64,000 nt of DNA from a virus (IMGVR_UViG_2713896899_000007:7041-71040); one strand, 5' to 3'; counted from the stretch's first letter, positions 1,449 through 43,328 are shown. Numbers and translations are program-made. Notes: generated by a model not told the origin, from the sequence alone.

Positions 1449-1465
1449 GTCCAAAAAATCCTTGA

Positions 1466-18359: not shown

Positions 18360-18991
18360 TATTCGTCCTCCCCTTCACTTCCATCATCTGTCGCATCAAA
18401 TTCGCTTAGAGCTTCTTCTTCCAACGTCTCAAGCAATTCGTCATCGATGATTTCAGGCTCGTCGTCTTCCTGACGTAATTTCGCCACCTGGGAAGGCGTA
18501 AGCTCACCAAATACCAGGTTCGGAATTTCTTCCTCGTCATTTTCAGCATGATCCATGCCCAATGCTTTGGACGAAACTTCAAAGCATTTTGCAAGGGTAT
18601 TACTGGCTCTCTGTAAGCTCTTGAGAGAATCCTCAATCGCCCCTAAAGGCTTACCATCACGTTTGGCCGTAGTGACTTCGACCATCACCATCTGCCCCAA
18701 CGCATACGCCCAGCCGTCATAACGTGTACGACGTTCTTCTATCTTTTCCGCACGGGCTTTAGCGCGAAGCTCTGCGTCAGATTTAAGAGACTCACGAACC
18801 ATCTTCCCAACAGAGTCCGCGCCTTTCTCTAATCCTCGCTTTTTGAAATGTCTGGAGAGTGTTTCACGACGAATGCCGTACTCTTCCTCCAGCTTTGAGA
18901 GTGTATATTCGCCTGACGTCCATTTGGCTTCAGCTTCGGCCCACTCCGCTGGTGTCAGGCGAGTTTTTACCTCGTCTTTTTCGACCGTCAT
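18359..18991 (-). CDS. Terminase small subunit (putative)
   Basis: 210 aa, N-terminal HTH-like segment, very acidic C-terminus, first gene of late operon; ATG at 18989-18991. Confidence 0.55.
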   Translation of the reverse strand: MTVEKDEVKTRLTPAEWAEAEAKWTSGEYTLSKLEEEYGIRRETLSRHFKKRGLEKGADSVGKMVRESLKSDAELRAKARAEKIEERRTRYDGWAYALGQMVMVEVTTAKRDGKPLGAIEDSLKSLQRASNTLAKCFEVSSKALGMDHAENDEEEIPNLVFGELTPSQVAKLRQEDDEPEIIDDELLETLEEEALSEFDATDDGSEGEDE

Positions 18992-19086
18992 AGATCCCTC
19001 TAAAACACACAGAGCGCGTCCATGCGCTCTAAAACAACTTGTTTACTGCGTATGCTAACCAACTTGTTTTCTGGGGTGTTTAATTA

Positions 19087-19185
19087 GGTCTGGGCATGTC
19101 TTACTAAGCCTGCTTCCGTATATATTTAATAAGTTACTTATTATTTATATATACGGAAGCAGGTCTTTAAATAAGCTCCCAGACC
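19087..19185. repeat. Long palindromic element, copy 1
   Basis: Inner 16-bp perfect inverted repeat CCTGCTTCCGTATATA (19109-19124 / 19148-19163) with 23-nt AT-rich loop; outer arms GGTCTGGG / CCCAGACC. Confidence 0.7.
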
Positions 19186-24003: not shown

Positions 24004-24005
24004 TT

Positions 24006-24284
24006 ATGAGCGAAAAGAAAACAACTTATTGCCAAGTGGCATTGTCTGATAAGGCCAATGAAAAACTTGGAAAATTTCAAATAAAACTCAAAGAGAAAAA
24101 AATCAAGATGTCTAAGGCTGAAGTTATCAATGCCATTCTGGAGACGATGACTATGGCTGAATTTGACAAAGTCACATCTGCCGTTGGGGTTTCCGCTAAG
24201 ACGCGTGAGAAAATCATGCGCATCTATGAAAACTCCAATATGACAAAAAAAGATCTAGAGGAAATACTGAGCAGGTTGCCGTAA
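24006..24284 (+). CDS. Hypothetical small protein (possible RHH-type DNA binder)
   Basis: 92 aa, starts 3 bp after helicase stop; Lys-rich. Confidence 0.4.
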   Translation: MSEKKTTYCQVALSDKANEKLGKFQIKLKEKKIKMSKAEVINAILETMTMAEFDKVTSAVGVSAKTREKIMRIYENSNMTKKDLEEILSRLP

Positions 24285-24316
24285 CATTTCATATTTACCC
24301 CCTATCAACTAATTCT

Positions 24317-24351
24317 ATGATGTGCTCACTTGTTAGAAAGGAGCACATCAT
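24317..24351 (+). promoter_or_regulatory. 11-bp perfect inverted repeat occluding RBS and start codon
   Basis: ATGATGTGCTC (24317-24327) pairs with GAGCACATCAT (24341-24351); AAGGAG RBS and the ATG at 24350 lie in loop and stem. Confidence 0.4.
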
Positions 24352-24916
24352 GAGTTGGTTAAAAGAATTATCATTTGTTGACACCACTGGCGCTAAGAAA
24401 AATCATTCTTTCTGGAAAGTCAGCGATCCTTCTGATTTTCTTGTTGGTGCTAATGCTGCTTTTGAATTGCTTAACTTTTATCAACGTTATCCTGAAATGA
24501 AACACAGTCCACTCCTGTACAGAATAACAAACGATATGAATAGGTCTGGTTTATTATCAAGTGAGTCAGCGAAAGGCTTTTTTAGCAAAATTACGCCACA
24601 CATATCATTCGATGCAGCAAACGAAATTGATTGTCTATCCACGAAACCTCAAGAACAATTATCTGTACCACCTGAGAAAAAACAAAGACGAATTGCCAGC
24701 ATTGAAAATATATCGAAAGAGCTTCGCACAACAACGTTGAGGCTGCTGAACTTTCTTACGCTACTTAATTGGATAGATGATCAAACATTGATTCCATCAA
24801 CCGATGCGTTGGATAACAGAGTACTTAGGCTGAACAAAAAATCGCAATTTGGTTTTGTGTTCACCAAAAAAGGTGAAGATTTAATCAAAAGAAAATATAG
24901 ATTATTGAATGATTAA
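24350..24916 (+). CDS. Hypothetical protein (AT-rich island)
   Basis: RBS AAGGAG 8 bp upstream of ATG 24350; track start 24317 lies inside an 11-bp inverted repeat. Confidence 0.45.
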   Translation: MSWLKELSFVDTTGAKKNHSFWKVSDPSDFLVGANAAFELLNFYQRYPEMKHSPLLYRITNDMNRSGLLSSESAKGFFSKITPHISFDAANEIDCLSTKPQEQLSVPPEKKQRRIASIENISKELRTTTLRLLNFLTLLNWIDDQTLIPSTDALDNRVLRLNKKSQFGFVFTKKGEDLIKRKYRLLND

Positions 24917-24923
24917 TAGTCTA

Positions 24924-24970
24924 CATGCAGGTGTATGAGAGCACCTGCATGTGATATTCATCACATTTTT
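24924..24970 (+). terminator. Hairpin(s) plus T-run after gene 24350..24916
   Basis: 10-bp stem CATGCAGGTG/CACCTGCATG followed by short stem GTGAT/ATCAC and T6. Confidence 0.4.
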
Positions 24971-25061
24971 TGAAGTACACACCTCCGGCTGAAAAAATTT
25001 CTTGATTGGCAGAACGATATTTGTAGGCTTTTCAATTGATAACTAAGGTCGGATACTGTAG

Positions 25062-25550
25062 ATGAGTATTTCCATAAACAAAATAATTAACTCTTTACGA
25101 CATAAAATATCACATGGAAAAGATGTTCTTTTTAAAGACAAATATTATCTATTCAACCTAGAGTTGTACAAATGCACAAAATTTTATATCACTCGGAACC
25201 GTAAATATTCAGCTTCAATCACAAAAGACATGAAGAAAATCTCTTCAGAAGAGTACTTCATATCACATATTTATATCTACCCATTTAAATTAGAACCATT
25301 AAATATAATTCTTCCAACAATAAAAGGGGTTGAACTTGAAGGTTATACTTTAAGCTCTAACTTTAATGATATGGGTGTACAAAAACCAGGGACAAGGTCA
25401 TACTACGCCTACAAAGTAAAATGCAATAACTACAACGCACTTAACATGCTAATCAGCAAACTTGAAACGGAGATAGTCGAAGGAAATCTAAATGATGATC
25501 ATGAAAAATTAGAACAAATAGAAAAACTTAGAAAGTGTGATGTTAAATAA
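25062..25550 (+). CDS. Hypothetical protein (AT-rich island)
   Basis: 162-aa ORF, very low GC, Lys/Asn/Ile-rich. Confidence 0.4.
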   Translation: MSISINKIINSLRHKISHGKDVLFKDKYYLFNLELYKCTKFYITRNRKYSASITKDMKKISSEEYFISHIYIYPFKLEPLNIILPTIKGVELEGYTLSSNFNDMGVQKPGTRSYYAYKVKCNNYNALNMLISKLETEIVEGNLNDDHEKLEQIEKLRKCDVK

Positions 25551-26165
25551 TTGGATTATCATGATATGAAAATGAAAATTTCGTTACTCCTTGCTTGTAT
25601 ATGCCTCCCGGCGTTTTCCGCCAACGCATTATCAGATTTCGTCTCTGACATGCAAAAAACGTACAGCATGTTTACCTCCGAAGACGTAGTAGAATACAAA
25701 TCACGAGGTCTGAATCAGCCAGTTTGGTTCAGATTCTCAGACAACGCAGAAGAAACAATACTTAATGGAGGAAAAGAAAGATTACGGTTGCAAATTAACG
25801 GGACCGCTGTACCAGAAAACGTTAATGTAAACTCTGACGAAGCCATGAAGCCATCTGGAATTGTTTTAGAAGTTCAAGACGGCACACTTTACTGTGATGA
25901 AATGGCTACAACAGGTTGCCAAGTAAACATTAGGGTTGGCAATGAAGAGCCTATCGTTACTTACGCCAAGGCTGAAGGGAATACAAGTGGAAAGGTATTG
26001 TTTATCGATGAAAATATCTCAAAACGTATCGTTCGTGACATACAGAAAACAGCTAACTCTAAATCCGTCGATAAAAAAATCTATGTTGAGGTTCCCTTCT
26101 TTGTCGTTGGTAACAAAGAATTTAAATTTGGGTTGCTGAAAACACCTCTAAGAGTATCAGAATGA
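25551..26165 (+). CDS. Secreted/periplasmic protein of unknown function
   Basis: Signal-peptide-like MKMKISLLLACICLPAFSANA (probable start 25566); two Cys in mature part. Confidence 0.5.
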   Translation: MDYHDMKMKISLLLACICLPAFSANALSDFVSDMQKTYSMFTSEDVVEYKSRGLNQPVWFRFSDNAEETILNGGKERLRLQINGTAVPENVNVNSDEAMKPSGIVLEVQDGTLYCDEMATTGCQVNIRVGNEEPIVTYAKAEGNTSGKVLFIDENISKRIVRDIQKTANSKSVDKKIYVEVPFFVVGNKEFKFGLLKTPLRVSE

Positions 26166-26686
26166 GAACATTGGACATCACCTACGGCATACCGGCTGAA
26201 GTCTGGCCGCGAGACTACGAACATGCTGAAAACATACTTATGTTCTGGCGGAAGAACAACATTCCTGTAAGAGTCACGCTTGAAGACGGTCAGGTGTTTT
26301 GCATGTACGTTCAGGGGACAATGCCTTCCCGCAATAAGCTAGATTTATGCCCGCTTCCATATGATAAAGAAAATCGTATAAGACTCCCACTTGAGCGCAT
26401 TAGCACAATTGAATCAGGTGTAATCGATGGCATTGCTCGCGAGTTCAAAGGTAGGCTAACAATACATCCAGACTATGTTGACAATCAGCCATCACGCCGT
26501 GACTTTTTTGCGATATGTCGCAAGGCTTATCAAAACGACCAATCTATAAGGGTCTACATGGCAGACGGTCGTGAAATTGAAGGGGTGTCAAGAGGCGTTG
26601 ATGCTTGCCAGGTCACTCTTAAGTTAGAAGACGGCAGAAAAATACTTGTTTTCTTCGATTGGGTTGAACGAATCCTTCCATTTTAA
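26162..26686 (+). CDS. Hypothetical protein with internal duplicated segment
   Basis: Repeated VRVTLEDGQVFCMYVQG / IRVYMADGREIEG / VTLKLEDGRKILVFF units; ATGA overlap with upstream gene. Confidence 0.45.
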   Translation: MRTLDITYGIPAEVWPRDYEHAENILMFWRKNNIPVRVTLEDGQVFCMYVQGTMPSRNKLDLCPLPYDKENRIRLPLERISTIESGVIDGIAREFKGRLTIHPDYVDNQPSRRDFFAICRKAYQNDQSIRVYMADGREIEGVSRGVDACQVTLKLEDGRKILVFFDWVERILPF

Positions 26687-26878
26687 ATCTATAAGGGTAA
26701 TAACCGGCTAAGCCCGGTTATTATTTTACATGCCATTCATTTAAAACTCTTTCAATGCCACTCTGTATAAATATATAAGGTTAAAGGCCCGAATTGATTA
26801 TTTATTTAGGGAACACCTTCGACGATCTCGCTTTTATTTCTAGGACTTTCACCCCTGCAAAAAATTTAAAAAAAACAC

Positions 26879-26906
26879 TTGCAATCTTTTTTCACGTATC
26901 GATAAT
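26879..26906 (+). promoter_or_regulatory. Sigma70-like promoter with A-tract UP-like element for AT-rich island genes
   Basis: -35 TTGCAA (26879-26884), 16-bp spacer, -10 GATAAT (26901-26906); A-rich tract 26859-26876. Confidence 0.5.
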
Positions 26907-26981
26907 TGAACTCGTCGAAAGCGAGCTGGCTAACGACAGTAAAAAATAAATTCATTTTAATTTTTCGTAAGGATGTCCATC

Positions 26982-27632
26982 ATGGCTAACATTATCATTT
27001 CTAAAAAATCCATCATTGAAGCTGCTTCCATTGTATCCGATGAACTGCGCGAAAAAGCAGATCTGGCAACTCAAACATATAACGAACATTATAAAAATGG
27101 TACGCACACTAAAGCAGACAAAGCAAATATGCAAGCTGCGACCACTAAACTTGCTTACTTCATCAACAACGTCGTAAACGCAGTAGAAGACGAAAAATTA
27201 TGCTCTGTTTTCTACTATGCGATTAAAGCAAGCAAACAAGCGCCAGAAGTATTTTTCCGTGATGCTATGACTAATAGTTATTCACTGGAAAAACTGGTTT
27301 ATCTGGTTAAATCCATTAAAGCTGGTAAATGCGTTTATTCCGTCGCTGATATGTCAGGATCTCGTGTATTCGCTTTAATCGATATGATTAACGACGAGAT
27401 CGACACGTTCACCAATGGCGCTGTTTTCGATTTAATGAATGAAGCTAAAAAAGCGTGCGAAATTAAATTGGACGCTGGCTATACTCAAGCCAACCAGTTG
27501 ATCAATCTTTGCGAACGTCTCGGACTTGTTGAAAAAGTCAAAGGAGCTGGGAGCGCCAAAGCTGGTACGCAGCAATATCGCTTCATTAAAAATGATTTCT
27601 ACAATTATTTAGCTGATGCTTTTAAAGCGTAA
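26982..27632 (+). CDS. Hypothetical protein (AT-rich island)
   Basis: RBS AAGGA 9 bp upstream of ATG 26982; preceded by sigma70-like promoter at 26879-26906. Confidence 0.5.
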   Translation: MANIIISKKSIIEAASIVSDELREKADLATQTYNEHYKNGTHTKADKANMQAATTKLAYFINNVVNAVEDEKLCSVFYYAIKASKQAPEVFFRDAMTNSYSLEKLVYLVKSIKAGKCVYSVADMSGSRVFALIDMINDEIDTFTNGAVFDLMNEAKKACEIKLDAGYTQANQLINLCERLGLVEKVKGAGSAKAGTQQYRFIKNDFYNYLADAFKA

Positions 27633-27644
27633 TTAATGAAATCA

Positions 27645-27663
27645 AGCGCCCACTATGGGCGCT
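27645..27663 (+). terminator. Hairpin AGCGCCCACTATGGGCGCT (internal attenuator-like)
   Basis: Same stem sequence as terminator at 28141; weak T-run. Confidence 0.35.
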
Positions 27664-27681
27664 TTAAAGGAGCTTTCAAAA

Positions 27682-27885
27682 ATGGTCAGCTATGACAAGA
27701 TCCGCGCGGAATATCGCGCAAAGTATCGCGCTTATAAACTGGAATTAATCGACGATTTGATCGCGCAACGCGACCAATTAAATTTTACGTTTTCTGATTT
27801 GCTTAACAGTAAACGAGATTGTAAGCGTAAGCGTGAATATTTACGTTTAAGCGCATTAATCGGAAAACTTCAAAATTCTATTTAA
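27682..27885 (+). CDS. Hypothetical small basic protein
   Basis: RBS AAGGAG at 27669-27674 then ATG 27682; track start 27655 lies inside a terminator hairpin. Confidence 0.4.
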   Translation: MVSYDKIRAEYRAKYRAYKLELIDDLIAQRDQLNFTFSDLLNSKRDCKRKREYLRLSALIGKLQNSI

Positions 27886-27905
27886 TTTTTTTAAGGAGCT
27901 TAATC

Positions 27906-28133
27906 ATGGTTATTTTCATCTCTGGCGTAAATATCAATAATCATACTCTTGTTTATGATATTGCTGGTTTAGCTGGATATGCTCTAAGTTCTGAAGTGGT
28001 TGATGAAACAACGTTTAAAATAAACATCAATGACGTAGAACATAGAGCGCGCGTAGGAATCAATGAAGCTGATGTTACTTTAATGCTTCAAGAATTTTTA
28101 AACGCTGGCTTTAATATTCACTTAGAAAAATAA
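27906..28133 (+). CDS. Hypothetical small protein
   Basis: RBS AAGGAG at 27890-27895, ATG 27906; followed by strong terminator. Confidence 0.4.
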   Translation: MVIFISGVNINNHTLVYDIAGLAGYALSSEVVDETTFKININDVEHRARVGINEADVTLMLQEFLNAGFNIHLEK

Positions 28134-31614: not shown

Positions 31615-31926
31615 AATAACGCACAGGCGAAAAAGGATTTTATTCCGGTGAATGTGGTTTTGGCAGTGAGTTTTCAGGTTCAGTACCGAGTACACTTTTT
31701 ACATTATTCTGATTTAGTGGCCGAAGATGGCTGGTGGGCAGAATAATCCTCTCCCCGAAAACCTACTGAAATCGATTGTGACCCGCTGGCTGTCTGGCAC
31801 AATTACGCTGTAGCTGGGCATTCAGAGGGAATCCAGCGGTAAGTTCGCCTGCACGTGAGCGCCTCTCTTCTTACCGCACATTACAGGTGGGTAGCCGCAA
31901 CTCTCCCTCACGCTATACCGGTACGC

Positions 31927-32060
31927 CACCGTTCCTGAACCGGCATCGAGCCTTTTCCCGAAATCCACACAGGCAACTCTACCGTTTCCCTGAAAATCCC
32001 CAGCCGTTCCCCGAAGGCAACCCAGCCGTTTCTGTAGCGGGATGCAGCCTTTCCCTGTAT
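31927..32060. repeat. Second array of CCGTTTCCC-type repeats (6 copies)
   Basis: ACCGTTCCTGAA, GCCTTTTCCCGAAATCC, ACCGTTTCCCTGAAAATCC, AGCCGTTCCCCGAAGG, AGCCGTTTCTG, AGCCTTTCCCTG. Confidence 0.6.
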
Positions 32061-32169
32061 GGACCGAAGGCTGACCGTAGGGGTGTTACGGGGGATAAAA
32101 TCAGGAGTTGAATAAATACGAAAAAGGAGGCGACACCCCTACTTCCCTCTCCACTTATACATACCAGGC

Positions 32170-32950
32170 TTCTTCGCTATACATGTTGTGTTTTCTTCGT
32201 GTTTTATCTGTCTCAACCTCTCTATAGGCGTTAATGCTCACTCCTACCAGAACGTTCTATACGGCGACTATTTCTGTTGGTGGATTAGGTGTGTTGTTTT
32301 CTCTGTCGGTGTATGTGGTTTCGTTCGTTTTGCGGTGGTTCTTCTATGGGGTGTTCTCGTCGTTTTGGTGATTGTTCTTCTCCGTATATGGAGTAATGGC
32401 AGGTGGGCGATTGCTTTCGTTATTGTGTTTGAGTTGTTTGTCTGGAGTGTGTGAAAGGCTTTTGTAGTTATTCGTGTATTGGGTAATGGCGTTTCCCGTG
32501 ATTGTTATGTTTCGTGTCTTTTGGGATTGAGAGAAACCTTGCGGTTACAGGCTTCGTTGGGGTTTCAGTGATTCTGGTGTTTCTTCGCTGTTTGGGGAAT
32601 GGCGTGTCGTGGGTATCGCGCGTGTGAATGTTTTCGGATTGCCTGTGAAAGTTAGGTTGGTTATCCGGTAGCCTGGGAAGAAGAGGTGGGTCTTTTCGGT
32701 AGCCTGCCATAAAGAGGTTGGTTGTTTTTGGGAATGGCATGTGTGTTATTTAGTTGTTTTGTTATGCCTGAAAATAAGTTGTTTATATGGTTGTGTAACG
32801 CAACGGGAGCGATTTTGAGCGTGTGTTTTTGTTGGTAGTGTGTTGAGTCGTCTGTGGTGAAAATTGGACGCTGTGGAGCTGTCTGCTGCGTAGGATTACG
32901 GGTATAAGAAGTGATGTGTGAAAACGTCAATTTTTTAGACCAAATCGGGA
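32170..32950. other. ORF-poor, strongly G+T-skewed repeat-rich region (candidate origin, centromere-like site or noncoding RNA locus)
   Basis: Top strand about 80-85 percent G+T in spot counts; at least 10 same-orientation GTTGTTTT(C) half-sites; four GGnAATGGC repeats at about 100-bp spacing (about 32395, 32485, 32598, 32730); only low-complexity ORFs. Confidence 0.5.
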
Positions 32951-33136
32951 GAAAGCGTTGATGTTTCGTTGATCTGTTATTTAGTTGTTTTCTTATTGGT
33001 ATAAACAACTGTAACCTATTGATATTTAAGGATGTGATTGCAGGCATGGAAGGGGAGTAGTGGCGATCAACGGATTCTTATAGAAAAGAATCAAATTGTG
33101 ACCGCCATTATCAACGGTTTGAATATGTTTGCAGAT

Positions 33137-33445: not shown

Positions 33446-33496
33446 TCCAAAACAAGTTGTTTTCTTATGTGGCTTATTATCTCTAACAACAAAAGG

Positions 33497-33636
33497 CAGA
33501 AAACAAATTGTTTTAGGTACTGTGTAAATCAGAAGGGATTGTGTCTATATGAAAATGCCCGGCGTGTTGCCGGGCATTGCGAAGAGAGGTTGTTTAATTA
33601 CTTAACCTGGTGGCCAGGTTTAGCACCGGCATCCGG
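33497..33636. repeat. metG 3'-end repeat copy 1 (promoter motif + terminator + last 13 codons of metG)
   Basis: 140 bp, about 88 percent identical to 34367-34506; carries [12 protein letters not shown]-stop in frame. Confidence 0.8.
33554..33578 (-). terminator. Terminator hairpin within metG-end repeat copy 1 (serves the degenerate HD gene)
   Basis: AATGCCCGGC...GCCGGGCATT stem with U-run on minus strand. Confidence 0.5.
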
Positions 33637-34327
33637 CTGCAGGATGGGAGGTTACGTTCGCGCTATGTTGATATTCTGATTGACGCCATTTGTGCCAAAT
33701 CATCTCCTTATAGGATTCATATTGCGTTCGGTACTCTGGCTTCAAGTCAGATATGCCTTTATTCACTACCGCTCGTACGTTTACTAATAATTCGTGCTCA
33801 ATGCCTTTACTCTCTAAATATTCTACAACACCAGCATCGGGGCCAATTGCCCTGCCGTTAAAGACCATTTCCAGCATAAGCTCTGTTTCAGCAAAATAGA
33901 TAGGTGAGGAACCAGGTGCACACAGCTTAATAGCAGTAAGATTGTCCAACAGGTCGGCCAATTTAATCATTCGCGTCTGCATATCCAACGTCTTTTGCAA
34001 TTCGCGAACATTAATAATGAATCTCGCAAGACTATCGCCGTCGTCTGGTTTGGCAACGTTTGCCAGCGCCAGTACCATCTCAGCTACACGATTCCCGAAA
34101 TACTCGCGTACCATTTCGATAGTGATATGGGTATCTTCAATAACACCATGTAATAATGCAGCAGCCTGCATTTCGACAGTGCCTCCGTGCCAAGCAACAA
34201 TCTCACGCACAGAAACTGGGTGTGTAACGTAGTCTTCCCCCGTATATCTACGCTTCTTACCTACACCACCATACACTCCAACGGCAAACATATGAGCTTT
34301 ATCAACAATCGACATAATTTGCTCCAT
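33620..34327 (-). CDS. RelA/SpoT-type HD hydrolase paralog with substituted catalytic residues (probable pseudo-enzyme)
   Basis: About 65-70 percent identical to the hydrolase at 42687..43328, but AH-GQ became VY-GK and both HD became HG (WHGG, LLHGVIEDT); C-terminus runs into the duplicated metG 3' fragment in another frame. Confidence 0.6.
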   Translation of the reverse strand: MEQIMSIVDKAHMFAVGVYGGVGKKRRYTGEDYVTHPVSVREIVAWHGGTVEMQAAALLHGVIEDTHITIEMVREYFGNRVAEMVLALANVAKPDDGDSLARFIINVRELQKTLDMQTRMIKLADLLDNLTAIKLCAPGSSPIYFAETELMLEMVFNGRAIGPDAGVVEYLESKGIEHELLVNVRAVVNKGISDLKPEYRTQYESYKEMIWHKWRQSEYQHSANVTSHPAAGCRC

Positions 34328-34366
34328 TATTTTGTTAATACTGTTACTCTAACTGATAATAGAACG

Positions 34367-34506
34367 CAGAAAACAAATTGTTTTAGGGGCTGAGTAAATC
34401 AGAAGGGATTGCGTCTATATGAAAATGCCCAGCAATACGCTGGGCATTGTGAAGAATGGTTGTTTAGTTACTTAACTTGGTGGCCTGGTTTAGCACCAGC
34501 ATCCGG
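34367..34506. repeat. metG 3'-end repeat copy 2 (authentic metG terminus and terminator)
   Basis: Direct repeat of 33497-33636, offset 870 bp. Confidence 0.8.
34420..34448 (-). terminator. metG rho-independent terminator (within repeat copy 2)
   Basis: AATGCCCAGC...GCTGGGCATT stem followed by UUUU on minus strand, 20 bp after metG stop. Confidence 0.6.
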
Positions 34507-36501
34507 GCTTAACAGGAAGATATCTTTCCCGCCGGGGCCAGCAGCCATCACCATGCCTTCGGAGATACCGAAGCGCATTTTACGCGGAGCCAGGTTAGCC
34601 ACCATAATTGTGTGACGACCAATCAGTGCCTGTGGGTCTGGATAAGCAGAACGGATGCCTGAGAAGACATTACGCTTTTCACCACCGAGATCCAGTGTCA
34701 GGCGCAACAGTTTGTCAGAACCTTCAACAAACTCCGCGTTTTCAATCAGCGCCACACGCAGGTCAACTTTGGCGAAGTCGTCAAAGGTGATGGTTTCCTG
34801 AATCGGGTCGTCAGCCAGTGGGCCAGTAACTGGCGCGGCAGTAGCTTTCACTTCTTCTTTGGATGCTTCCACCAGTGCTTCCACCTGTTTCATATCGATA
34901 CGGTTATACAGTGCCTTGAACGGATTCACTTTATGGCCCAGCAGCGGTTGCTGGATACCATCCCAGGTCAGTTCTGTATTCAGGAATGCTTCTGCACGTT
35001 CAGTCAGTTTCGGCAGTACCGGTTTCAGATACGTCATCAGCACGCGGAACAGGTTAATGCCCATAGAGCAAATCGCCTGCAGATCTGCATCGCGACCTTC
35101 CTGCTTCGCCACCACCCACGGAGCCTGTTCATCGACATAGCGGTTAGCCAGGTCAGCCAATGCCATGATTTCACGGATAGCTTTACCAAATTCGCGGCTT
35201 TCCCATGCTTCGCCAATCACTTCAGCGGCATCAGTAAAGGTTTTGTACAGTTGCGGGTCAGCCAGTTCGCTTGCCAGCACGCCGTCAAAACGCTTGTTGA
35301 TAAAGCCTGCATTACGGGAGGCCAGGTTAACCACTTTGTTAACAATATCGGCATTCACTCGCTGAACGAAATCCTCCAGGTTGAGATCGATATCATCAAT
35401 GCGCGAAGAGAGTTTCGCAGTGTAGTAGTAACGCAGGCTGTCAGCGTCAAAATGATTCAGCCAGGTGCTGGCTTTAATAAAGGTGCCGCGAGACTTGGAC
35501 ATCTTCGCACCGTTCACCGTCACATAGCCATGAACAAACAGGTTGGTCGGCTTGCGGAAGTTGCTGCCTTCCAGCATGGCAGGCCAGAACAGACTGTGGA
35601 AGTAAACGATATCTTTACCGATGAAGTGGTACAGCTCGGCGGTGGAGTCTTTCTTCCAGTATTCATCGAAGCTGGTGGTATCGCCGCGCTTGTCGCACAG
35701 ATTCTTGAAGGAACCCATGTAGCCAATCGGTGCGTCCAGCCAGACGTAGAAATATTTACCCGGCGCGTTCGGAATTTCAAAACCGAAGTAAGGTGCGTCG
35801 CGGGAGATATCCCACTGTTGCAGACCAGATTCAAACCACTCCTGCATTTTGTTTGCCACCTGCTCCTGCAACGCACCGCTGCGGGTCCATGCCTGCAACA
35901 TTTCGCTGAAAGAGGGCAGATCAAAGAAGAAGTGTTCAGAATCACGCATTACCGGGGTAGCACCAGAAACCACCGATTTCGGCTCGATCAGTTCAGTCGG
36001 GCTGTAGGTCGCGCCACAAACTTCACAGTTATCGCCGTATTGATCTGGCGCTTTACATTTCGGGCAGGTGCCTTTCACAAAACGATCCGGCAGGAACATG
36101 CCTTTTTCCGGGTCGTACAACTGAGAGATAGTGCGGTTTTTAATAAAACCGTTCTCTTTCAGGCGAGTATAAATAAGCTCAGACAGCTGGCGGTTCTCTT
36201 CGCTGTGCGTCGAGTGATAGTTGTCATAGCTGATGTTAAAGCCTGCGAAATCAGTCTGGTGTTCCTGACTCATTTCGCCAATCATCTGCTCCGGTGTGAT
36301 ACCAAGTTGCTGTGCTTTCAGCATGATCGGCGTACCGTGGGCATCGTCGGCACAGATGAAATTAACCTCGTGGCCGCGCATTCGCTGGTAACGAACCCAG
36401 ACATCAGCCTGGATGTGCTCCAGCATATGGCCGAGGTGGATTGAGCCGTTAGCGTACGGCAGCGCGCACGTCACCAGAATTTTCTTCGCGACTTGGGTCA
36501 T
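34468..36501 (-). CDS. metG: Methionine--tRNA ligase
   Basis: 677 aa from ATG 36499-36501 ([26 protein letters not shown]...KMSKS...[10 protein letters not shown]); near-identical to E. coli MetG over full length as I recall it; the track ORF is extended upstream. Confidence 0.95.
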
Positions 36502-36658
36502 AGTAGGCATTACTTCTTTGTAGTGAAAAGGGGCTTGATAGTAACAAAATGGCCTTATGTCTGCCATGTGATAACAGCATTTCTCATAAATGATTAAATG
36601 TCGTAGCTGGAGTACACTACAAGGCGACAATTGCGCAAATTAAAATAAAGGAGACGGG

Positions 36659-37759
36659 ATGAGCGAGTCCAAATCGCCGGATGCCCTGAGAGCAATGGTA
36701 GCCGGTACGCTGGCTAATTTTCAGCACCCAACCCTGAAACACAACCTGACTACGCTTAAAGCGTTACACCATGTTGCGTTGATGGATGACACACTGCATG
36801 TCGAACTAATCATGCCTTTCGTGTGGAATAAGCCTTTTGAAGACCTGAAAGAGCAATGTAGTGGTGATCTGCTCCGTATCACTGGCGCAAAGGCTATTGA
36901 CTGGAAGCTGTCGTACAACATTGCCACGCTTAAGCGCGTCAAAAACCAACCAGGCATTAATGGTGTTAAGAATATTATCGCCGTAAGCTCAGGCAAGGGC
37001 GGTGTAGGCAAATCGTCCACAGCAGTAAACTTGGCACTGGCGTTGGCTGCTGAAGGTGCGAAAGTTGGTATTTTGGATGCCGATATCTACGGGCCATCAA
37101 TACCAACCATGCTGGGCGCGGAAAACCAACGTCCAACCTCACCGGACGGTACTCACATGGCACCTATCATGTCTCATGGCCTGGCAACCAATTCAATTGG
37201 CTATCTGGTCACCGACGACAATGCAATGGTGTGGCGTGGACCGATGGCCAGCAAGGCGCTGATGCAGATGTTGCAGGAAACACTGTGGCCTGATCTGGAC
37301 TATCTCGTTCTCGATATGCCGCCGGGCACTGGTGATATTCAGTTGACGCTGGCGCAGAACATTCCTGTAACTGGTGCGGTTGTGGTAACTACGCCGCAAG
37401 ACATCGCGCTGATCGATGCGAAGAAAGGCATTGTGATGTTCGAAAAAGTCGAAGTGCCAGTACTGGGTATCGTTGAAAACATGAGTGTGCATATTTGCAG
37501 TAACTGCGGTCATCACGAGCCAATTTTTGGCACCGGTGGCGCACAGAAACTGGCCGAGAAATACAACACGCAGTTGTTAGGCCAAATGCCACTTCATATC
37601 TCTCTTCGTGAAGATCTGGATAACGGAACACCAACCGTTATTAGTCGTCCAGATAGTGAATTTACGGCTATTTATCGTGACCTCGCAGATCGCGTTGCTG
37701 CCCAAATGTATTGGCAAGGTGAAGTAATACCTGGCGAAATCGCATTCCGCGCAGTGTGA
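36659..37759 (+). CDS. apbC: Fe-S cluster carrier ATPase Mrp/ApbC
   Basis: 366 aa, SGKGGVGKS P-loop, CxxC motif; near-identical to E. coli Mrp; divergent from metG as in Escherichia chromosomes. Confidence 0.95.
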   Translation: MSESKSPDALRAMVAGTLANFQHPTLKHNLTTLKALHHVALMDDTLHVELIMPFVWNKPFEDLKEQCSGDLLRITGAKAIDWKLSYNIATLKRVKNQPGINGVKNIIAVSSGKGGVGKSSTAVNLALALAAEGAKVGILDADIYGPSIPTMLGAENQRPTSPDGTHMAPIMSHGLATNSIGYLVTDDNAMVWRGPMASKALMQMLQETLWPDLDYLVLDMPPGTGDIQLTLAQNIPVTGAVVVTTPQDIALIDAKKGIVMFEKVEVPVLGIVENMSVHICSNCGHHEPIFGTGGAQKLAEKYNTQLLGQMPLHISLREDLDNGTPTVISRPDSEFTAIYRDLADRVAAQMYWQGEVIPGEIAFRAV

Positions 37760-37764
37760 TAAAA

Positions 37765-37785
37765 AGGTGGTGCATTGCACCACCT
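37765..37785. terminator. Bidirectional hairpin between apbC and the UmuD'-like gene
   Basis: Perfect 9-bp stem AGGTGGTGC/GCACCACCT with 3-nt loop; A5 tract on plus side gives U5 for the minus-strand transcript. Confidence 0.55.
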
Positions 37786-37796
37786 AAACAGTTCTC

Positions 37797-38186
37797 CTAC
37801 ATCACAGGACAATCATCAAACTCGCCACTTCTTGCGTCGTTGATAATGTGAGTGATCACACCAAACACGGCATTGCTGCCCGTGCATCCATCGTCATCCT
37901 TTGGCAATGCTTCCTTCTTACCAGTTCTTAAATCCTCCAGATGCTGACGTGGATACTTCCGGTATCTTTTTACGCGATATTCCCCATCCAGAGCGCATAC
38001 AAGCAGAGAACCATCAACCGGGGTAAGTGAGGAATCGACCACCAGCAATGCGCCCTGCAATATTCCCTCACGATGATGGCTGTCAGCCGCTCTCATGAAG
38101 TAGGTCGCTGAAGGATGTCTAATTATCTGCTGATCAAGAGAAATACGGCTCTCAGCATAATCCGCCGCAGGAGAAGGGAAGCCCAT
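37797..38186 (-). CDS. UmuD'-like S24 peptidase (begins at the position equivalent to the UmuD Cys24-Gly25 cleavage site)
   Basis: MGFPSPAADY... aligns with UmuD from Gly25; Ser (AADS) and Lys (RVKR) of the catalytic dyad retained; in-frame stop 5 codons upstream of ATG; LexA box 20 bp upstream. Confidence 0.75.
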   Translation of the reverse strand: MGFPSPAADYAESRISLDQQIIRHPSATYFMRAADSHHREGILQGALLVVDSSLTPVDGSLLVCALDGEYRVKRYRKYPRQHLEDLRTGKKEALPKDDDGCTGSNAVFGVITHIINDARSGEFDDCPVM

Positions 38187-38202
38187 AGCGTTTTGCCCTC
38201 AA

Positions 38203-38222
38203 TACTGTTCATTTATACAGTA
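38203..38222 (-). promoter_or_regulatory. LexA operator (SOS box) upstream of UmuD'-like gene
   Basis: TACTGTTCATTTATACAGTA = CTGT-N8-ACAG palindrome, 16/20 match to E. coli LexA consensus; about 20 bp upstream of ATG 38186. Confidence 0.75.
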
Positions 38223-38358
38223 TACATGAAAGAAGCTCACTCAGTGCAACTGATCGGTACATAGCACCAGACAAAGGAACATTATTTTCTCGAACAAGAA
38301 AAGGTAGAAAACAAATTGTTTAAGGCCACAGCTAGTGGCCTTAATGGAGAAGGGATGC

Positions 38359-38922
38359 TTATTGGCTATGGCTAAAAATCAAATGAGACACTTCATTTGG
38401 TTGTAGCTCGTCAAGATCCGGGGCCACAAAACCTTTTCCGAAAGACTTCACAAGTGATTCACCTGCCGCATCATTGTCACCTATTACGCGAAAGTCATAC
38501 GGCAGCATTGCCAGTTGACGACGTAATCCTGCTGAGAAAGTCGAACCTAACAGCGCCCACGAATTTCCGCCCGCGTTGTGCACTGCTGCACTTTTAAAAA
38601 TCGACTCAGTTATCCATATCGGTCCATCTTTTAAAGGAAGATAGGTTCCCCATAGTAGCTGTCTGCCGTGCGCACGTGTGAAATACCGGGCCATCTTCGG
38701 ATTGCTATGCTGCTTAGGAGCGCCTGGTCTGTATGTCTGATACCCGGCCAACATCCCATCAAACCTGTATAGAGGGAATGTAACAACTCCTTCGCTTTCA
38801 TCGATCCACTGTCTATATGGATGCACATCATGGCGGTAGTTACGAGTTAGCAAATGAGCTTCCAGCTTTCCAAATTTAGTCATAACTTCGCATCCCTCAT
38901 AACACTTCCCATTTATCACCAT
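38359..38922 (-). CDS. Toprim-domain protein (primase C-terminal-like)
   Basis: DxDxAG-type Toprim motif VIGDNDAAGE and upstream ITES acidic motif. Confidence 0.5.
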   Translation of the reverse strand: MVINGKCYEGCEVMTKFGKLEAHLLTRNYRHDVHPYRQWIDESEGVVTFPLYRFDGMLAGYQTYRPGAPKQHSNPKMARYFTRAHGRQLLWGTYLPLKDGPIWITESIFKSAAVHNAGGNSWALLGSTFSAGLRRQLAMLPYDFRVIGDNDAAGESLVKSFGKGFVAPDLDELQPNEVSHLIFSHSQ

Positions 38923-39751
38923 ATTTCTCCATAGCTCTTAGCCAATAAACATGGCCACTAGGCATAGTGATGTGAGGCTCGCCAAACTCTTCTCCATGCA
39001 CATCAAAGATGTCCCCAACAGAGAATTGGGGGATTTCTGTGCCGTTTTCACCTATATGCGTAATTCGTATACGTTTCGGTTGAGATTCGCCCCCTTTGAG
39101 CGAGTTGTTCACGGCTCTTGCAATCTTCTCCCGCAATTGCTGCGTTCCGTGATACGTAACCGCAATATCCCTCAACTCGTTCACCAGTTCTCGAATCTGG
39201 TGATCTTTAAGCTCATTATTTGAGTGATTGGCAACAACTCTGGTTAATTCACCCTTGTCTTTTGCTCTTACGTATGCAGCTCTTGTGCATTCGACCCATG
39301 TATTACCGCCTACATTAACTTCGTAGATTAGGCTGGACTTATCTGTCAATTCGGAACAAATACGGGCCGTGGTCTGGCAACTAGAGCATTCGCAGTTATC
39401 GCGGAAACCGTGGTCTACTGGCTTCGGTTTCACATCATCAACTTTTTCTACCCTATTGGAATTTAAATACTTCGAAGCCTTGCTATGCCAATCGCTGGTT
39501 TTAGGATCTTGTCCATCCATCAAACGCCAGGCTTCAGCGATTAACTCATAACTAGTGACTGTAGCTTCCTGAGCATCACCAATAAGTCGTGTAATCTCTC
39601 TTTCAAGCCGACCGCCTAACTCCGTTTTAGTGCAATGTTCTGACCAATCGCCAGCCTCAAGAAGCGCGAGAATGTTTAAAATATCGTCCAATAGAACGGT
39701 AGTATTTTCGACTTCCTTCTGAAGCTCTCCGGCTGCTGATTTATGCGTCAT
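38897..39751 (-). CDS. Zinc-binding protein, possible primase N-terminal module
   Basis: Cys cluster DNCECSSCQTTARIC; overlaps the Toprim ORF by 26 bp in another frame. Confidence 0.35.
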   Translation of the reverse strand: MTHKSAAGELQKEVENTTVLLDDILNILALLEAGDWSEHCTKTELGGRLEREITRLIGDAQEATVTSYELIAEAWRLMDGQDPKTSDWHSKASKYLNSNRVEKVDDVKPKPVDHGFRDNCECSSCQTTARICSELTDKSSLIYEVNVGGNTWVECTRAAYVRAKDKGELTRVVANHSNNELKDHQIRELVNELRDIAVTYHGTQQLREKIARAVNNSLKGGESQPKRIRITHIGENGTEIPQFSVGDIFDVHGEEFGEPHITMPSGHVYWLRAMEKYGDKWEVL

Positions 39752-40002
39752 TCATCATCCTCATCACAGGTTGAGAGTAGTGGGTTAGTCATTCGTCCTA
39801 CTTGAGTGGCGTAGCCACGCCGACAGAGATTGCGCAGCACACTGTATATTTCGAACATCTCGGTTCGTTCATCGCCAACATCAAGCTCAGATGCCATAGC
39901 GTGGCATTCAGCCGCGAGAGCCGATATTTTCTGAAATAACTCTGCTTTATTCACTGTTCGACTCCTGCGGCGGTTCTGGTAGTGGCATCCAGTGTGTGAC
40001 AT
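39748..40002 (-). CDS. Hypothetical small protein
   Basis: 84-aa ORF in tightly packed minus-strand early operon. Confidence 0.3.
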   Translation of the reverse strand: MSHTGCHYQNRRRSRTVNKAELFQKISALAAECHAMASELDVGDERTEMFEIYSVLRNLCRRGYATQVGRMTNPLLSTCDEDDE

Positions 40003-40246
40003 TGCTAATCAGACCATATTCATTAGTTTGAGGATGATTGCCGTTATCGTCTCCGTATTTAAGACTCTCCATAAAGCCATAATGCCTATCACCATTAACG
40101 CTCACAAAGCCGTAATAAGCAGGTATAACGCCGATCTCACACGTAACCAGCAAAGGAAAACTAGTTCTCCAATTTAGCTCGCCGATTACAGGCATCTGCT
40201 CACTACAGCTTATCCAACCATCAGGAGTAACCGGATAGTTGCGCAT
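39947..40246 (-). CDS. Hypothetical small protein
   Basis: 99-aa ORF, overlapping neighbours. Confidence 0.3.
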   Translation of the reverse strand: MRNYPVTPDGWISCSEQMPVIGELNWRTSFPLLVTCEIGVIPAYYGFVSVNGDRHYGFMESLKYGDDNGNHPQTNEYGLISNVTHWMPLPEPPQESNSE

Positions 40247-40596
40247 TGCGACCTTAAATGCCTCATTTTCAGATTATTGAACTGACGCCCGTTTAGAGGG
40301 CCATGTTCTGTCAACATGTTGTGTAATTTCCATGCCGCGTCGTTAACTTCGTTGGATGATCTGGGAGGCAACTTGCAAGTTTGGCTTACAGGTTCTGCAC
40401 TATCAGCTTCGCGCCGCTTCTGTAGCTCTGCTGCCATCGCTCTCACGACTTCAACTGGTGCCCTTGCAGCAAACTCTATGTTGGTGATCAGCTCATTAAG
40501 ATATTGCTCGCCTGGATACTGTTTCTTATCGGTTATAGTAGTCATATCACTCTCCTTTTCCCTGAAGCATAGCGGCACGGCAGGCGTTCCATCCAT
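40210..40596 (-). CDS. Hypothetical protein
   Basis: 128-aa ORF in early operon. Confidence 0.35.
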   Translation of the reverse strand: MDGTPAVPLCFREKESDMTTITDKKQYPGEQYLNELITNIEFAARAPVEVVRAMAAELQKRREADSAEPVSQTCKLPPRSSNEVNDAAWKLHNMLTEHGPLNGRQFNNLKMRHLRSQCATIRLLLMVG

Positions 40597-40969
40597 CTGC
40601 GTAACAATCTCTGTGCGTCTTGAAATTTGTCACCGCTCTTGGTACATCCTTTACATCTATTTCATCAGGCACAATCGGCGCTGGAGGGGCTGCGTAGACC
40701 TCAATAACTCCATTATCAATAGGCCACTCCCCATCCTTGATGTAGTCACTTGTGCCGTCAACTTGCTGTTCTGCAATGTGGAATGCACCTATTGGTTTTG
40801 CTTCCAGCGAGGCCAGTGCAATTCGTGCCAGTTTTAGATCTCGTTCAACCATCTCAATAACAACTTTGCAGTCCGCACCTTCTTTACTAACACGTCCTTT
40901 CAAGTCTTCCAGATAACTAACGCTTTCGCGTGCATGGGAGATTAACTGTTCTTTGGTTAAGGTGGTCAT
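40547..40969 (-). CDS. Hypothetical protein
   Basis: 140-aa ORF in early operon. Confidence 0.35.
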   Translation of the reverse strand: MTTLTKEQLISHARESVSYLEDLKGRVSKEGADCKVVIEMVERDLKLARIALASLEAKPIGAFHIAEQQVDGTSDYIKDGEWPIDNGVIEVYAAPPAPIVPDEIDVKDVPRAVTNFKTHRDCYADGWNACRAAMLQGKGE

Positions 40970-41154
40970 TAGGCAGCTCTCTCAACAACAAGCAATTCGT
41001 CGTAGTCATAATCAGTTTCGGAACCATCCGTACCGAACAGAGTCACTTTGTCATCTTCCATCCAAAAAGATTTAACCGCACATTGTTGACCTTTAGATGT
41101 TATGAGCACATCACCAGGGATTACGTCTTCAGCGCGAACTTCTAGTGTTCTCAT
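40969..41154 (-). CDS. Hypothetical small protein
   Basis: 61-aa ORF with start/stop juxtaposed to neighbours. Confidence 0.3.
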   Translation of the reverse strand: MRTLEVRAEDVIPGDVLITSKGQQCAVKSFWMEDDKVTLFGTDGSETDYDYDELLVVERAA

Positions 41155-41696
41155 CGTGCTGACCCCTCTTTGGTTAAAATGCCTGCTGCAATGCTGTTTA
41201 TGATGCTGTCAGTGCATGGAGTAGAAAGCTGGGCATCTCCAGCAATTTTCATGACTTCGACATCCGCATATCGAATACCGAGGTGTATCAGACCTGCTAT
41301 ACCTGACTTAAGTCGAACATTTTCCATAAACAGATCCTTTTCCCGCTGTTTAACGGTCTCCAGCTCAACACGCAGTTTCTCAAGCGTTAGGGCCATCTCT
41401 ACGTTCTCCTGCTCAAGACGTCGGATGTGTTGCTGTCTTTTATCCATTTCGTCCAGCAGTGCAATCACATCGGGATCACTATCATCAACTACTGTTACGC
41501 GTGATTTTTCATAATGTTCGTCTGCAAAAGTACGCCCTATCTTAAAATATCCGTCATCACCCTCACCGGAACAGGCATAAACAACATGTGCTCCAGATAT
41601 GCGCTGTATTGACATTTCCTCGCCACAAACAGAGCATTTAGGCGCTGGTTTTGGTGAATAACGTTCACGTAACGTCAGGTAGTAAATCTCGCTCAC
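41151..41696 (-). CDS. Hypothetical zinc-ribbon / coiled-coil protein
   Basis: CSVCGEEM...YACSG zinc-ribbon-like N-terminus, central coiled coil. Confidence 0.4.
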   Translation of the reverse strand: MSEIYYLTLRERYSPKPAPKCSVCGEEMSIQRISGAHVVYACSGEGDDGYFKIGRTFADEHYEKSRVTVVDDSDPDVIALLDEMDKRQQHIRRLEQENVEMALTLEKLRVELETVKQREKDLFMENVRLKSGIAGLIHLGIRYADVEVMKIAGDAQLSTPCTDSIINSIAAGILTKEGSAR

Positions 41697-42148: not shown

Positions 42149-42702
42149 TACGATGCCTCTAACTTGTCTAACTCTTTCAGCCCTTCACGTACCGCGTTCA
42201 CAATGCGTTCCAGATACTGGTATTTCGGGTTTGGTACCGTTGGCCAGTCGGCATACCACGGATCATCACCAAAGAGATTCAGTAGTTTGTTACCGACGCC
42301 GAAACAGCAGCAGCTTTCTTTTACGTCATCGGCGTTTTCCGCCTCGTCCCACATTTCGCGAGCCAGTACGGCGTCTATTTCTCTCTCTCTTCGTAACTTT
42401 ATGATTTCTGACTTCACGAAAAGCAGATTTGCATCGTTGTCATCGTCGACCGTGCTTCGCAGTTGAGGGTCGAAATAGCCGATTAGATACTCGTTGCTGA
42501 CCCGCTTAATGAACGTCTGCACATCATCACCGCCCATAGCAAACCAAGCCGCAGTCCACGCTTTTCCGTAGCAGGTGATGGTGATTCTTCCCTTACCAGG
42601 TTCGTAGTTTTCAATCATCACTCGAACCGGATCGAGGCGTTCCAGATCCGTCAGCACAAAGGAAAGAACATCTATTTTTTCGATCTTCATGCAGCCTCCC
42701 AC
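42148..42702 (-). CDS. Hypothetical protein
   Basis: 184-aa ORF; probable start at internal Met (MKIEKIDV). Confidence 0.4.
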   Translation of the reverse strand: MGGCMKIEKIDVLSFVLTDLERLDPVRVMIENYEPGKGRITITCYGKAWTAAWFAMGGDDVQTFIKRVSNEYLIGYFDPQLRSTVDDDNDANLLFVKSEIIKLRREREIDAVLAREMWDEAENADDVKESCCCFGVGNKLLNLFGDDPWYADWPTVPNPKYQYLERIVNAVREGLKELDKLEAS

Positions 42703-43328
42703 GCGCTCCAGATCAGCGATTTGTGTTTTTCATAACGTTTGATGTGTACCGGTTTCAGAAGCGCAATACCTTCAGTGACTTTCGCCATTGCGCTTAATAA
42801 CAACGGGTGTTCTATACCTATCCTCTCCATGTACTCGACAACATCAGCGTTGGCACCAATCTCCTTCCCGTTAAAAAGTACGTCCAGCATCAGCTCTTTC
42901 TCTGCAAGGTAGATAGCTGAAAACTCAGGATCGCGACTCACGATAGAAGAGGTATTGTCGAGCAGGTCAGCCAGCTTGATCATGCGCGTCTGCATGTCGA
43001 GATTTTGCTCCAGCTCCCGGACATTGATGATGAAACGCTGTATTCGATTGCCGTCTTCTGGCCTTGCGATGTTGGTCAGAGCCTGAACCATTTCAGCTAC
43101 GCGCTCACCGAAGTGATCACGAACCATCTCTATGGTTACATTGGTGTCTTCGACCACATCATGCAGAAGCGCCGCGATTTGCATCTCCACGGTTCCGTCA
43201 TGCAATGCAACAATCTCTCGGACAGCAACCGGGTGGTTGATGTAGTCTTCGCCGGTATATTTTCTTTTCTGACCAACGCCACCATGAGCGCCAGCGGCGA
43301 ACATATGTGCTTCGGAAATACTAGACAT
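42687..43328 (-). CDS. Small alarmone hydrolase (RelA/SpoT-type HD-domain (p)ppGpp/(p)ppApp hydrolase)
   Basis: Complete RSH hydrolase motifs AHGGVGQKRKYTGEDYINHP, ALHDG, LLHDVVEDT; single-domain 213 aa. Confidence 0.7.
   Translation of the reverse strand: MSSISEAHMFAAGAHGGVGQKRKYTGEDYINHPVAVREIVALHDGTVEMQIAALLHDVVEDTNVTIEMVRDHFGERVAEMVQALTNIARPEDGNRIQRFIINVRELEQNLDMQTRMIKLADLLDNTSSIVSRDPEFSAIYLAEKELMLDVLFNGKEIGANADVVEYMERIGIEHPLLLSAMAKVTEGIALLKPVHIKRYEKHKSLIWSAWEAA

Follow-up and report, generated by a model that had tools for sequence, protein, structure and literature searches.

The 64,000-nt stretch analysed here (IMGVR_UViG_2713896899_000007:7041-71040, from a virus, called the window and numbered from its first letter) carries an intact pair of host-type genes, metG and apbC, between phage genes. 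We consider it quite likely, taken as a whole, that metG-apbC is a captured and domesticated module of a phage-plasmid (P-P), acquired in a single ancient event, later overwritten in part by host alleles, and acting through gene dosage in a lysogen that is merodiploid for both genes. The P-P alleles were distinct from every chromosomal allele examined.

The metG gene (34468-36501, minus strand) encodes a methionyl-tRNA synthetase (MetRS) of 677 amino acids (aa) and matched the NCBIfam model NF001100 over its full length with 1019.8 bits (cutoff 587). By Pfam the protein has PF09334 and PF01588, the domains of the long bacterial form with a C-terminal tRNA-binding domain, and it retains the MetRS signatures HLGH (the HIGH motif, residues 22-25), KMSKS (333-337) and a zinc knuckle (CxxC...CxxC, C146-C162). 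The apbC gene, also named mrp (36659-37759, plus strand), encodes a P-loop NTPase of 366 aa that carries iron-sulfur (Fe-S) clusters. It gave a full-length equivalog match to NF008669 (759.3 bits, cutoff 348) and has the deviant Walker A motif GKGGVGKS (112-119) and the CxxC motif CSNC (280-283) of the ApbC/Mrp family. A preliminary description of this DNA had reported metG and apbC as intact here, and the reading frames and the equivalog scores, both above their cutoffs, bore this out.

The chromosomal counterpart of the pair in Escherichia coli K-12 is the locus yehE-mrp-metG-yehF, with the same two genes in the same internal organisation. BLASTN of the window against that locus returned a single match (34468-37755, 88.1%), and the junction alignments showed that chromosomal homology stops at the two stop codons of metG and apbC. 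The module (34468-37759) is exactly two coding sequences plus their shared intergenic region, from stop codon to stop codon. Aligned with K-12, this native divergent intergenic region (36502-36658, 157 nt) is conserved over about 50 nt next to metG and diverged, with insertions and deletions, next to apbC.

MetG is identical to K-12 MetG at 669 of 677 residues. At seven of the eight differing positions the protein has the residue of the E. albertii chromosome, and at six of these also that of a chromosomal fragment from Salmonella. The sole MetG change specific to the Escherichia P-P copies compared is A554T, which lies in the linker that precedes the C-terminal domain. The window MetG is thus predicted to be essentially wild-type. 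ApbC is identical to K-12 Mrp at 346 of 365 residues (95%). At the nucleotide level, metG is 93.8% identical to K-12 (synonymous divergence, dS, 0.31) and 92.9% to E. albertii, while apbC is 81.7% identical to K-12 (dS about 1.7) and is no nearer to Escherichia than to Citrobacter. A scan for donors among 80 enterobacterial loci, in which the chromosomes of E. fergusonii, E. marmotae and E. ruysiae were not included, found nearest chromosomal alleles at 93.8% for metG and 82.2% for apbC.

To place the pair in its element, we compared the window with plasmids and phages. The 5.5-kb segment 33000-38500 is 100% identical to plasmid p009_B of E. coli strain 9, a circular molecule of 110,182 bp, and window position 1 corresponds to position 43,991 of the p009_B record. 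Genes for tail, tape-measure, head-tail connector and terminase proteins occupy 1-25 kb of the window, and nrdAB, thyX, a gene for an SbcC-like nuclease (sbcC) and methylase genes occupy 39-64 kb; rnhA also belongs to the nucleotide and DNA metabolism genes of the element, beside nrdAB and thyX. Both flanks of the pair are about 95-98% identical to phages Cyrano (OV696614), PhiR41_1 (PV340561) and CMS-2020a and about 79-81% identical to Salmonella phage SSU5, whose structural module (tail, tape-measure, terminase) was recovered at 4-19126 with 81.2% identity. Two partition genes (ParB/Srx and ParB/RepB/Spo0J) lie at about 21.0-22.4 kb, p009_B is a circular replicon within the range of about 100-115 kb that, together with partition genes, marks the SSU5 supergroup, and replicon typing assigned its relatives to rep_cluster_488 or IncFIB. 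Because of the phage-gene flanks, the phage matches, the ParB genes and the circularity of p009_B, we assign the source element to the SSU5-supergroup P-Ps, as a temperate phage that persists outside the chromosome, is about 110 kb long and has plasmid-type partition genes. Judged from these sequences, both flanks belong to one replicon that is also packaged as a phage; the near-identical genomes deposited as phages (Cyrano, PhiR41_1) are indirect evidence as to virions from p009_B itself.

These comparisons leave next to no probability for the view that the segment is host chromosome between two prophages, a prophage edge, or an assembly chimera. The pair and its internal organisation do match the chromosomal locus, as that view would have it, but the source record is a circular 110-kb plasmid, and the same gene arrangement occurs in four phage genome records and 201 plasmids. 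No chromosomal neighbour genes accompany the pair, the homology ends at the stop codons, and sites of one palindrome (described below) lie on both sides. The alleles are 6% (metG) and 18% (apbC) off the E. coli chromosome, which argues against mis-joined host reads, and they recur in hundreds of independent assemblies. The preliminary description had placed the host-like genes inside one mobile genome, away from any prophage edge and with phage DNA on both sides, and in this it was right: tail and terminase genes lie to the left, and nrdAB, thyX and sbcC to the right. Assembly chimerism, which it had listed among its explanations, and two separate prophages around host DNA, which it had named as a way to be wrong, both fell away.

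The module is widespread. In PLSDB, 201 plasmids hold at least 80% of 34300-37800, and 187 of the matching records do so at 95-99% identity; the 208 matching records comprise Escherichia (191, from E. coli, E. albertii and E. marmotae), Shigella (6), Salmonella (5) and Klebsiella (5). At least 162 of 5,426 complete E. coli genomes contain at least 80% of the 5.5-kb query, with 215 records matching at 95% or more, and a public collection lists the identical MetG protein in 3,442 indexed blocks, most by far on contigs of 50-200 kb. The preliminary description had proposed to see whether relatives carry metG-apbC; Cyrano, PhiR41_1, CMS-2020a and about 200 plasmids do, and in the three phages the order is metG-apbC-humD with the products annotated as MetRS and ‘MinD’. 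SSU5, in contrast, has a homologous structural, replication and accessory backbone (67-87% nucleotide identity, including the hydrolase gene SSU5_099) but no metG, apbC or humD; the interval between its orthologous flanks holds unrelated small genes. A megablast search of related Klebsiella phages also gave no metG match. The module is therefore clade-specific accessory cargo, and it sits in a hypervariable slot of the leftward-transcribed region, in which the neighbours differ among P-Ps (humD, der, a polysaccharide deacetylase gene, a CTX-M-like beta-lactamase gene with a DDE transposase, or a type I restriction-modification system). It is inserted between phage genes, is absent from SSU5, and has a native intergenic region and a terminator hairpin on either side, as expected of a phage moron; we predict that metG-apbC is a moron-like unit with its own promoter region.

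To estimate how long the pair has resided in P-Ps, we compared six Escherichia and Shigella P-P copies. Their nucleotide divergence reaches 7% for metG and 4.7% for apbC, while the ratio of non-synonymous to synonymous divergence (dN/dS) is only 0.005-0.045 for metG and 0-0.016 for apbC; one apbC pair has 46 synonymous differences and a single non-synonymous one. The ApbC protein is the same in five of the six copies, from four host species, and ApbC WP_000004356.1 is common to P-Ps of E. coli, Shigella sonnei, E. marmotae and E. albertii. The GC content at third codon positions (GC3) of the P-P apbC is 0.51, against 0.62 on the E. coli chromosome, and that of metG is 0.59 against 0.63. With a mean of 0.48 over 31 backbone open reading frames in the window, apbC has moved most of the way to the backbone value, an outcome of the GC comparison that the preliminary description had called for. 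The allele divergence, the dN/dS values and the shift in GC3 show that the pair has long been resident in the P-P and that both proteins are under direct selection, with apbC apparently conserved as tightly as metG. Since no similar chromosomal allele was found among those examined, the selection signal in apbC cannot, on these comparisons, be an artefact of re-import from the chromosome.

It is accordingly very improbable that the pair is a recent, neutral and transient passenger, brought in by aberrant excision resembling specialised transduction or by a recombination accident. The hypervariable slot with its changing neighbours would suit such a passenger, as would the record of plasmid ESBL242, which seems to be without most of the module. 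Yet the P-P copies are up to 7% apart with almost no amino-acid change, the GC3 of apbC has been ameliorated, the terminators show compensatory changes, and the module is found across P-Ps of E. coli, S. sonnei, E. albertii, E. marmotae and Salmonella. Host-gene capture had been suggested in the preliminary description in two forms: the moron-like acquisition fits, whereas a recent transducing-type pick-up does not agree with the allele divergence, the GC3 amelioration and a dN/dS of about 0.01.

A Salmonella plasmid offered a view of the alleles in a P-P from another host. CP053410.1 (107.7 kb, rep_cluster_488) has a backbone 67-83% identical to the window and carries metG-apbC in the same slot, but its metG is only 86% and its apbC only 80% identical to those of the window. 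Compared with a Salmonella fragment, confirmed as chromosomal by its synteny with Citrobacter, identity is 93.3% for the metG of CP053410.1 and 97.1% for the first 591 nt of its apbC. The match to the Salmonella chromosome stops at the metG stop codon, while that to the Escherichia P-Ps runs on across the P-P-specific terminator and palindrome, about 110 nt further. Neighbour-joining trees with 500 bootstraps grouped the Salmonella P-P copy with Salmonella (100%) and, for metG, the Escherichia P-Ps with Escherichia (100%), placing the latter nearer to E. coli than E. albertii is (93%); all P-P copies formed one clade in 0% of replicates. For apbC, the Escherichia P-Ps were a long-branch sister of E. 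coli plus E. albertii, with a bootstrap of 99% for the full gene and 28% for the first 591 nt.

Within the Escherichia-type elements, the metG of an S. sonnei P-P contains a run of 344 nt identical to K-12, inside a region of 97-100% identity, while the rest of the gene is 90-96% identical; this run looks like a gene-conversion tract from the host chromosome. In the Escherichia P-Ps, an intergenic breakpoint about 50 nt upstream of the metG start divides the ‘refreshed’ metG from the ‘old’ apbC. Because Salmonella-type alleles lie behind the P-P left junction and a K-12-identical tract lies in the S. sonnei copy, the P-P alleles appear to be repeatedly overwritten by those of the resident host, or to be ‘host-tracking’. 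Integration or recombination at metG had been among the earlier suggestions. Integration at metG was not seen, and the recombination with chromosomal metG takes the form of gene-conversion tracts.

The same trees could be read as separate captures of metG-apbC by Escherichia-type and Salmonella-type P-Ps, each from its own host, since bootstrap support of 100% joins every P-P allele to the genus of its host, and no clade of all P-P copies was recovered. We regard this as unlikely, because the two types of element share the same slot and the same cut at the metG stop codon, and about 110 nt of P-P-specific terminator and palindrome are common to both and absent from both chromosomes. In addition, the mechanism of replacement does operate, as the partial conversion tract of the S. 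sonnei metG demonstrates. One capture followed by replacement is the simplest reading, and independent captures at an identical junction are less likely.

We propose that metG-apbC was captured once, in the distant past, from an Escherichia lineage, as the phylogenetic pattern suggests, and that RecA-type recombination with the resident chromosomal copy would then have repeatedly overwritten parts of the module. Such overwriting would account for a metG that is E. coli-like, an apbC that is long diverged with a GC3 near that of the backbone, and a Salmonella P-P with Salmonella-type alleles. A lysogen would be merodiploid for fully active, essentially wild-type MetRS and ApbC, expressed from native-type signals. 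Expression of the P-P-borne metG would give rise to a tolerant or persister subpopulation that survives antimicrobials, to the benefit of both host and element; in the window element this would come about through MetRS dosage or imbalance, not through a mutant enzyme.

The functional part of this proposal draws on a related element. According to PMC12452169, the P-P-borne metG of pWPMR2 mediates antimicrobial survival through a tolerant or persister subpopulation (Tam et al. 2024, medRxiv 10.1101/2024.10.27.24316207, as cited there), and its expression creates a subpopulation predisposed to acquire resistance to third-generation cephalosporins. The pWPMR2-like elements are a clade of SSU5-like P-Ps that also occur in E. 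coli CC131, CC23 and CC73 (bioRxiv 10.1101/2025.09.12.675607). The window likewise has its metG on an SSU5-like P-P. With S. sonnei plasmid pAUSMDU00010534_01 standing in for pWPMR2 in the sequence comparison, the order metG-apbC-humD is the same, the nucleotide identity is 96.7% and ApbC is identical. MetG, however, differs at 7 aa, and the window protein is not the same variant, as it lacks G134C, A410T and D565E; the S. sonnei copy with these three changes may be the ‘mutated’ pWPMR2-type allele of the literature. The window metG also lacks the K-12-identical conversion tract of the S. sonnei metG (locus L088, 3101-5134), and 3’ of metG the window holds, in addition, an HD_4 gene and a 180-nt duplication.

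Several points weigh against our proposal. Because the window MetG is without G134C, A410T and D565E, the strength of the phenotype is uncertain for this allele, and the published phenotype may be weaker or absent. The dosage model offers no explanation for the benefit of apbC. A promoter scan of the metG/apbC intergenic region did not find a strong sigma-70 consensus, and the placement of apbC with Escherichia hangs on a long branch, so that apbC may have come from a different or unsampled donor. Finally, the summary of Tam et al. emphasises highly variable metG copies.

Other systems help to delimit the likely mechanism. Chromosomal metG alleles that confer tolerance are partial loss-of-function point mutations that alter tRNA-Met charging and lag time. 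Girgis et al. in 2012 and Fridman et al. in 2014 reportedly described such alleles in antibiotic tolerance or persistence of E. coli. The enzyme is the same in the window, but here it is a second, essentially wild-type copy on a mobile element, and any effect of the window metG would probably be one of gene dosage. The mupA and mupB isoleucyl-tRNA synthetases are likewise second aminoacyl-tRNA synthetase copies on mobile elements; they are highly divergent and drug-insensitive, and they confer inhibitor resistance. The window MetG, unlike these, is 99% identical to the host enzyme, and it scored only 33 bits against the MupA/MupB models (cutoff 1900), so target replacement is not the mechanism.

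It is conceivable, though we think it doubtful, that the module mainly serves the phage, in that extra MetRS (for charging initiator and elongator tRNA-Met) together with ApbC and the neighbouring SpoT-like alarmone hydrolases would, in the course of lytic growth, sustain translation and weaken stringent or alarmone signalling, or would act against defences directed at translation. Two HD_4 hydrolase genes flank the module, one of them directly behind metG; the element also carries nrdAB, thyX and rnhA; and selection acts on apbC as well as on metG. Such a role is purely inferential, however, and SSU5 has a hydrolase without metG, which speaks against an obligatory link. Whole-window tRNA and Rfam scans gave no match, so there is no tRNA-Met partner here, and the lack of tRNA genes in the window also counts against a phage-serving role. 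The only experimental report known, cited in PMC12452169, concerns host antimicrobial survival. A more specific idea, to which we give a similarly modest chance, is that the module is a long-domesticated, host-tracking auxiliary unit of the phage, which gene conversion from the chromosome of every new host would keep compatible with that host, and which acts with the SpoT-like hydrolases on tRNA-Met charging and stringent signalling, with ApbC as a required partner. If this were true, lysogens would be tolerant, or lytic growth would be shielded from translation- or alarmone-based defences.

Returning to the proposed capture and domestication, the ends of the module carry P-P-specific elements. 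Just 3’ of metG is an intrinsic terminator (34419-34448, minus strand) with a 10-bp stem and a U-run (folding free energy, dG, -17.6 kcal/mol; z -4.0). It shows a compensatory A:T to G:C change relative to Cyrano, is found in a diverged form in the Salmonella P-P, and is absent from both chromosomes, hence it is not a chromosomal terminator. The next element is the palindrome AGAAAACAAATTGTTTT, seen as the operator-like site AAAACAAATTGTTTT at 34370-34384 (repeat family D3). The preliminary description had noted that the two flanks share a palindromic element, and the window indeed has AAAACAAnTTGTTTT at 10 sites (0.04 expected), some to the left and some to the right of metG-apbC. The sites span 19031-47748 (for example 33449, 33500, 34370, 38308 and 47734), and those within 32.5-39 kb directly follow a terminator hairpin and lie upstream of the leftward gene that comes next; AAAACAAnTTGTTTT looks like a candidate operator for some P-P regulator. 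The shared promoter motifs that had been noted in the flanks correspond to a 44-nt promoter- or operator-like element (repeat family D2), located upstream of humD at 38282-38325 and again at 33474 and 34344.

On the right, the convergent apbC and humD genes have their stop codons at 37759 and 37797, 37 nt apart, with a single hairpin between them (37765-37785, minus strand in the terminator scan), just as the preliminary description had it for apbC and the UmuD’-like gene. The hairpin has a 9-bp stem with a T-run on the humD strand, dG values of -16.5 and -19.5 kcal/mol on the two strands (z about -3), and a compensatory stem change relative to Cyrano and the S. sonnei P-P. The compensatory stem changes between the window and Cyrano suggest that the hairpins beyond metG and apbC are both functional. 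The humD gene itself (37797-38186, minus strand) encodes a P1-type UmuD’-like S24 protein of 129 aa, with 219.8 bits against the NCBIfam HumD equivalog (cutoff 120).

Directly 3’ of metG lies a gene for a protein resembling SpoT-like small-alarmone hydrolases (33620-34327, minus strand; Pfam HD_4), whose sequence matches in the PDB are Lmo0812, MESH1 and a (p)ppApp hydrolase. A second HD_4 hydrolase gene (42687-43328, minus strand) is the ortholog of SSU5_099 (86.7% nucleotide identity to SSU5). The two proteins are 63% identical to each other, which agrees with the HD-hydrolase paralogs reported earlier for the flanks. The first HD_4 gene is bracketed by a 180-nt direct repeat (family D1; 33457-33636 and 34327-34506, 81% identity), each copy of which holds the palindrome, the terminator hairpin and the last 39 nt of metG. 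In the first copy the hairpin is at 33554-33578 and the 39-nt metG 3’ remnant at 33598-33636, and the stop codon of the HD_4 gene falls inside this remnant. Compared with Cyrano, which has a single repeat copy and neither the HD_4 gene nor the metG 3’ remnant of window 33457-34362, the window has about 870 bp extra 3’ of metG. This arrangement shows that P-P variants have recombined with the metG 3’ end as the joint. The HD_4 insert and the 180-nt repeat with its metG remnant are also the reason why the segment had earlier been taken to start at 33497.

We also made several observations on the surroundings of the module. To the right of apbC, 37807-41462 (humD, a LexA-regulated function gene and Eaa-like genes) shares about 87% identity with phage P1; the module thus adjoins a P1-derived mosaic segment without counterpart in SSU5. 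In the E. marmotae plasmid NZ_CP146383.1 (166 kb; locus L089, 6656-8128), the gene beside apbC is annotated as der in place of humD, and der, for a ribosome-biogenesis GTPase, is a second host-type housekeeping gene in the slot. VDEX01000010.1 (locus L095, 1608-4001) has, beyond humD, a gene for a class A beta-lactamase of 291 aa, which resembles CTX-M in size and Pfam matches, beside a DDE transposase, and other relatives (loci L098 and L100, 1-5608) have a type I restriction-modification system beyond humD. Resistance or defence cargo is thus found within a few kb of metG-apbC in some relatives.

A few records need separate mention. The exact MetG, with P-P genes within 8 kb on either side, was found on two chromosome-size contigs, VCZV01000001.1 (4.89 Mb) and CP043541.1 (5.57 Mb), which represent either integration or a cointegrate (not at metG), or assembly joins. 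Plasmid ESBL242 (NZ_KP792123.1, 101.9 kb) has a record that starts 130 nt inside the metG 3’ end and is otherwise without metG-apbC-humD; we rejected it as a metG-less relative, for with the record beginning inside metG, a deletion and an assembly break are indistinguishable in the MG1655 background. OW969824.1 (Klebsiella pneumoniae ‘plasmid P1’, 232 kb, 82% match) was rejected as a P-P, as it has yehZYXW, yehUT and housekeeping genes of chromosomal type on both sides, and it is probably a mis-assigned chromosomal contig.

Elsewhere in the window, a low-GC island (24001-28000, GC 0.35-0.40 against about 0.47 elsewhere) lies between the partition and helicase genes and the accessory region. 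About 1.5 kb at 31620-33130 is without annotation, and its centre (about 32160-32900) is strongly G+T-rich on the plus strand, with a GC skew of +0.31 and an AT skew of -0.35 over 32001-33000. The region is shared with Cyrano at 96% and, weakly, with SSU5 at 68%, and neither tandem repeats nor an Rfam match were found in it. It may give rise to a non-coding RNA or act in cis.

The feature itself is already known: the plasmid and the phages have been deposited and annotated, a P-P-borne metG has been described and functionally studied, and the window is another example of a known metG-bearing element. What is added here is evidence for ancient domestication, for strong selection on apbC and for host-tracking allele replacement, which is of modest but real evolutionary interest. 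Elements of this kind are frequent in E. coli and Shigella, with about 3-4% of the complete E. coli genomes searched here carrying one, and they spread as viruses. PMC12452169 connects the second metG of a P-P with survival of antibiotics and with the cephalosporin resistance that later evolved in epidemic S. sonnei.

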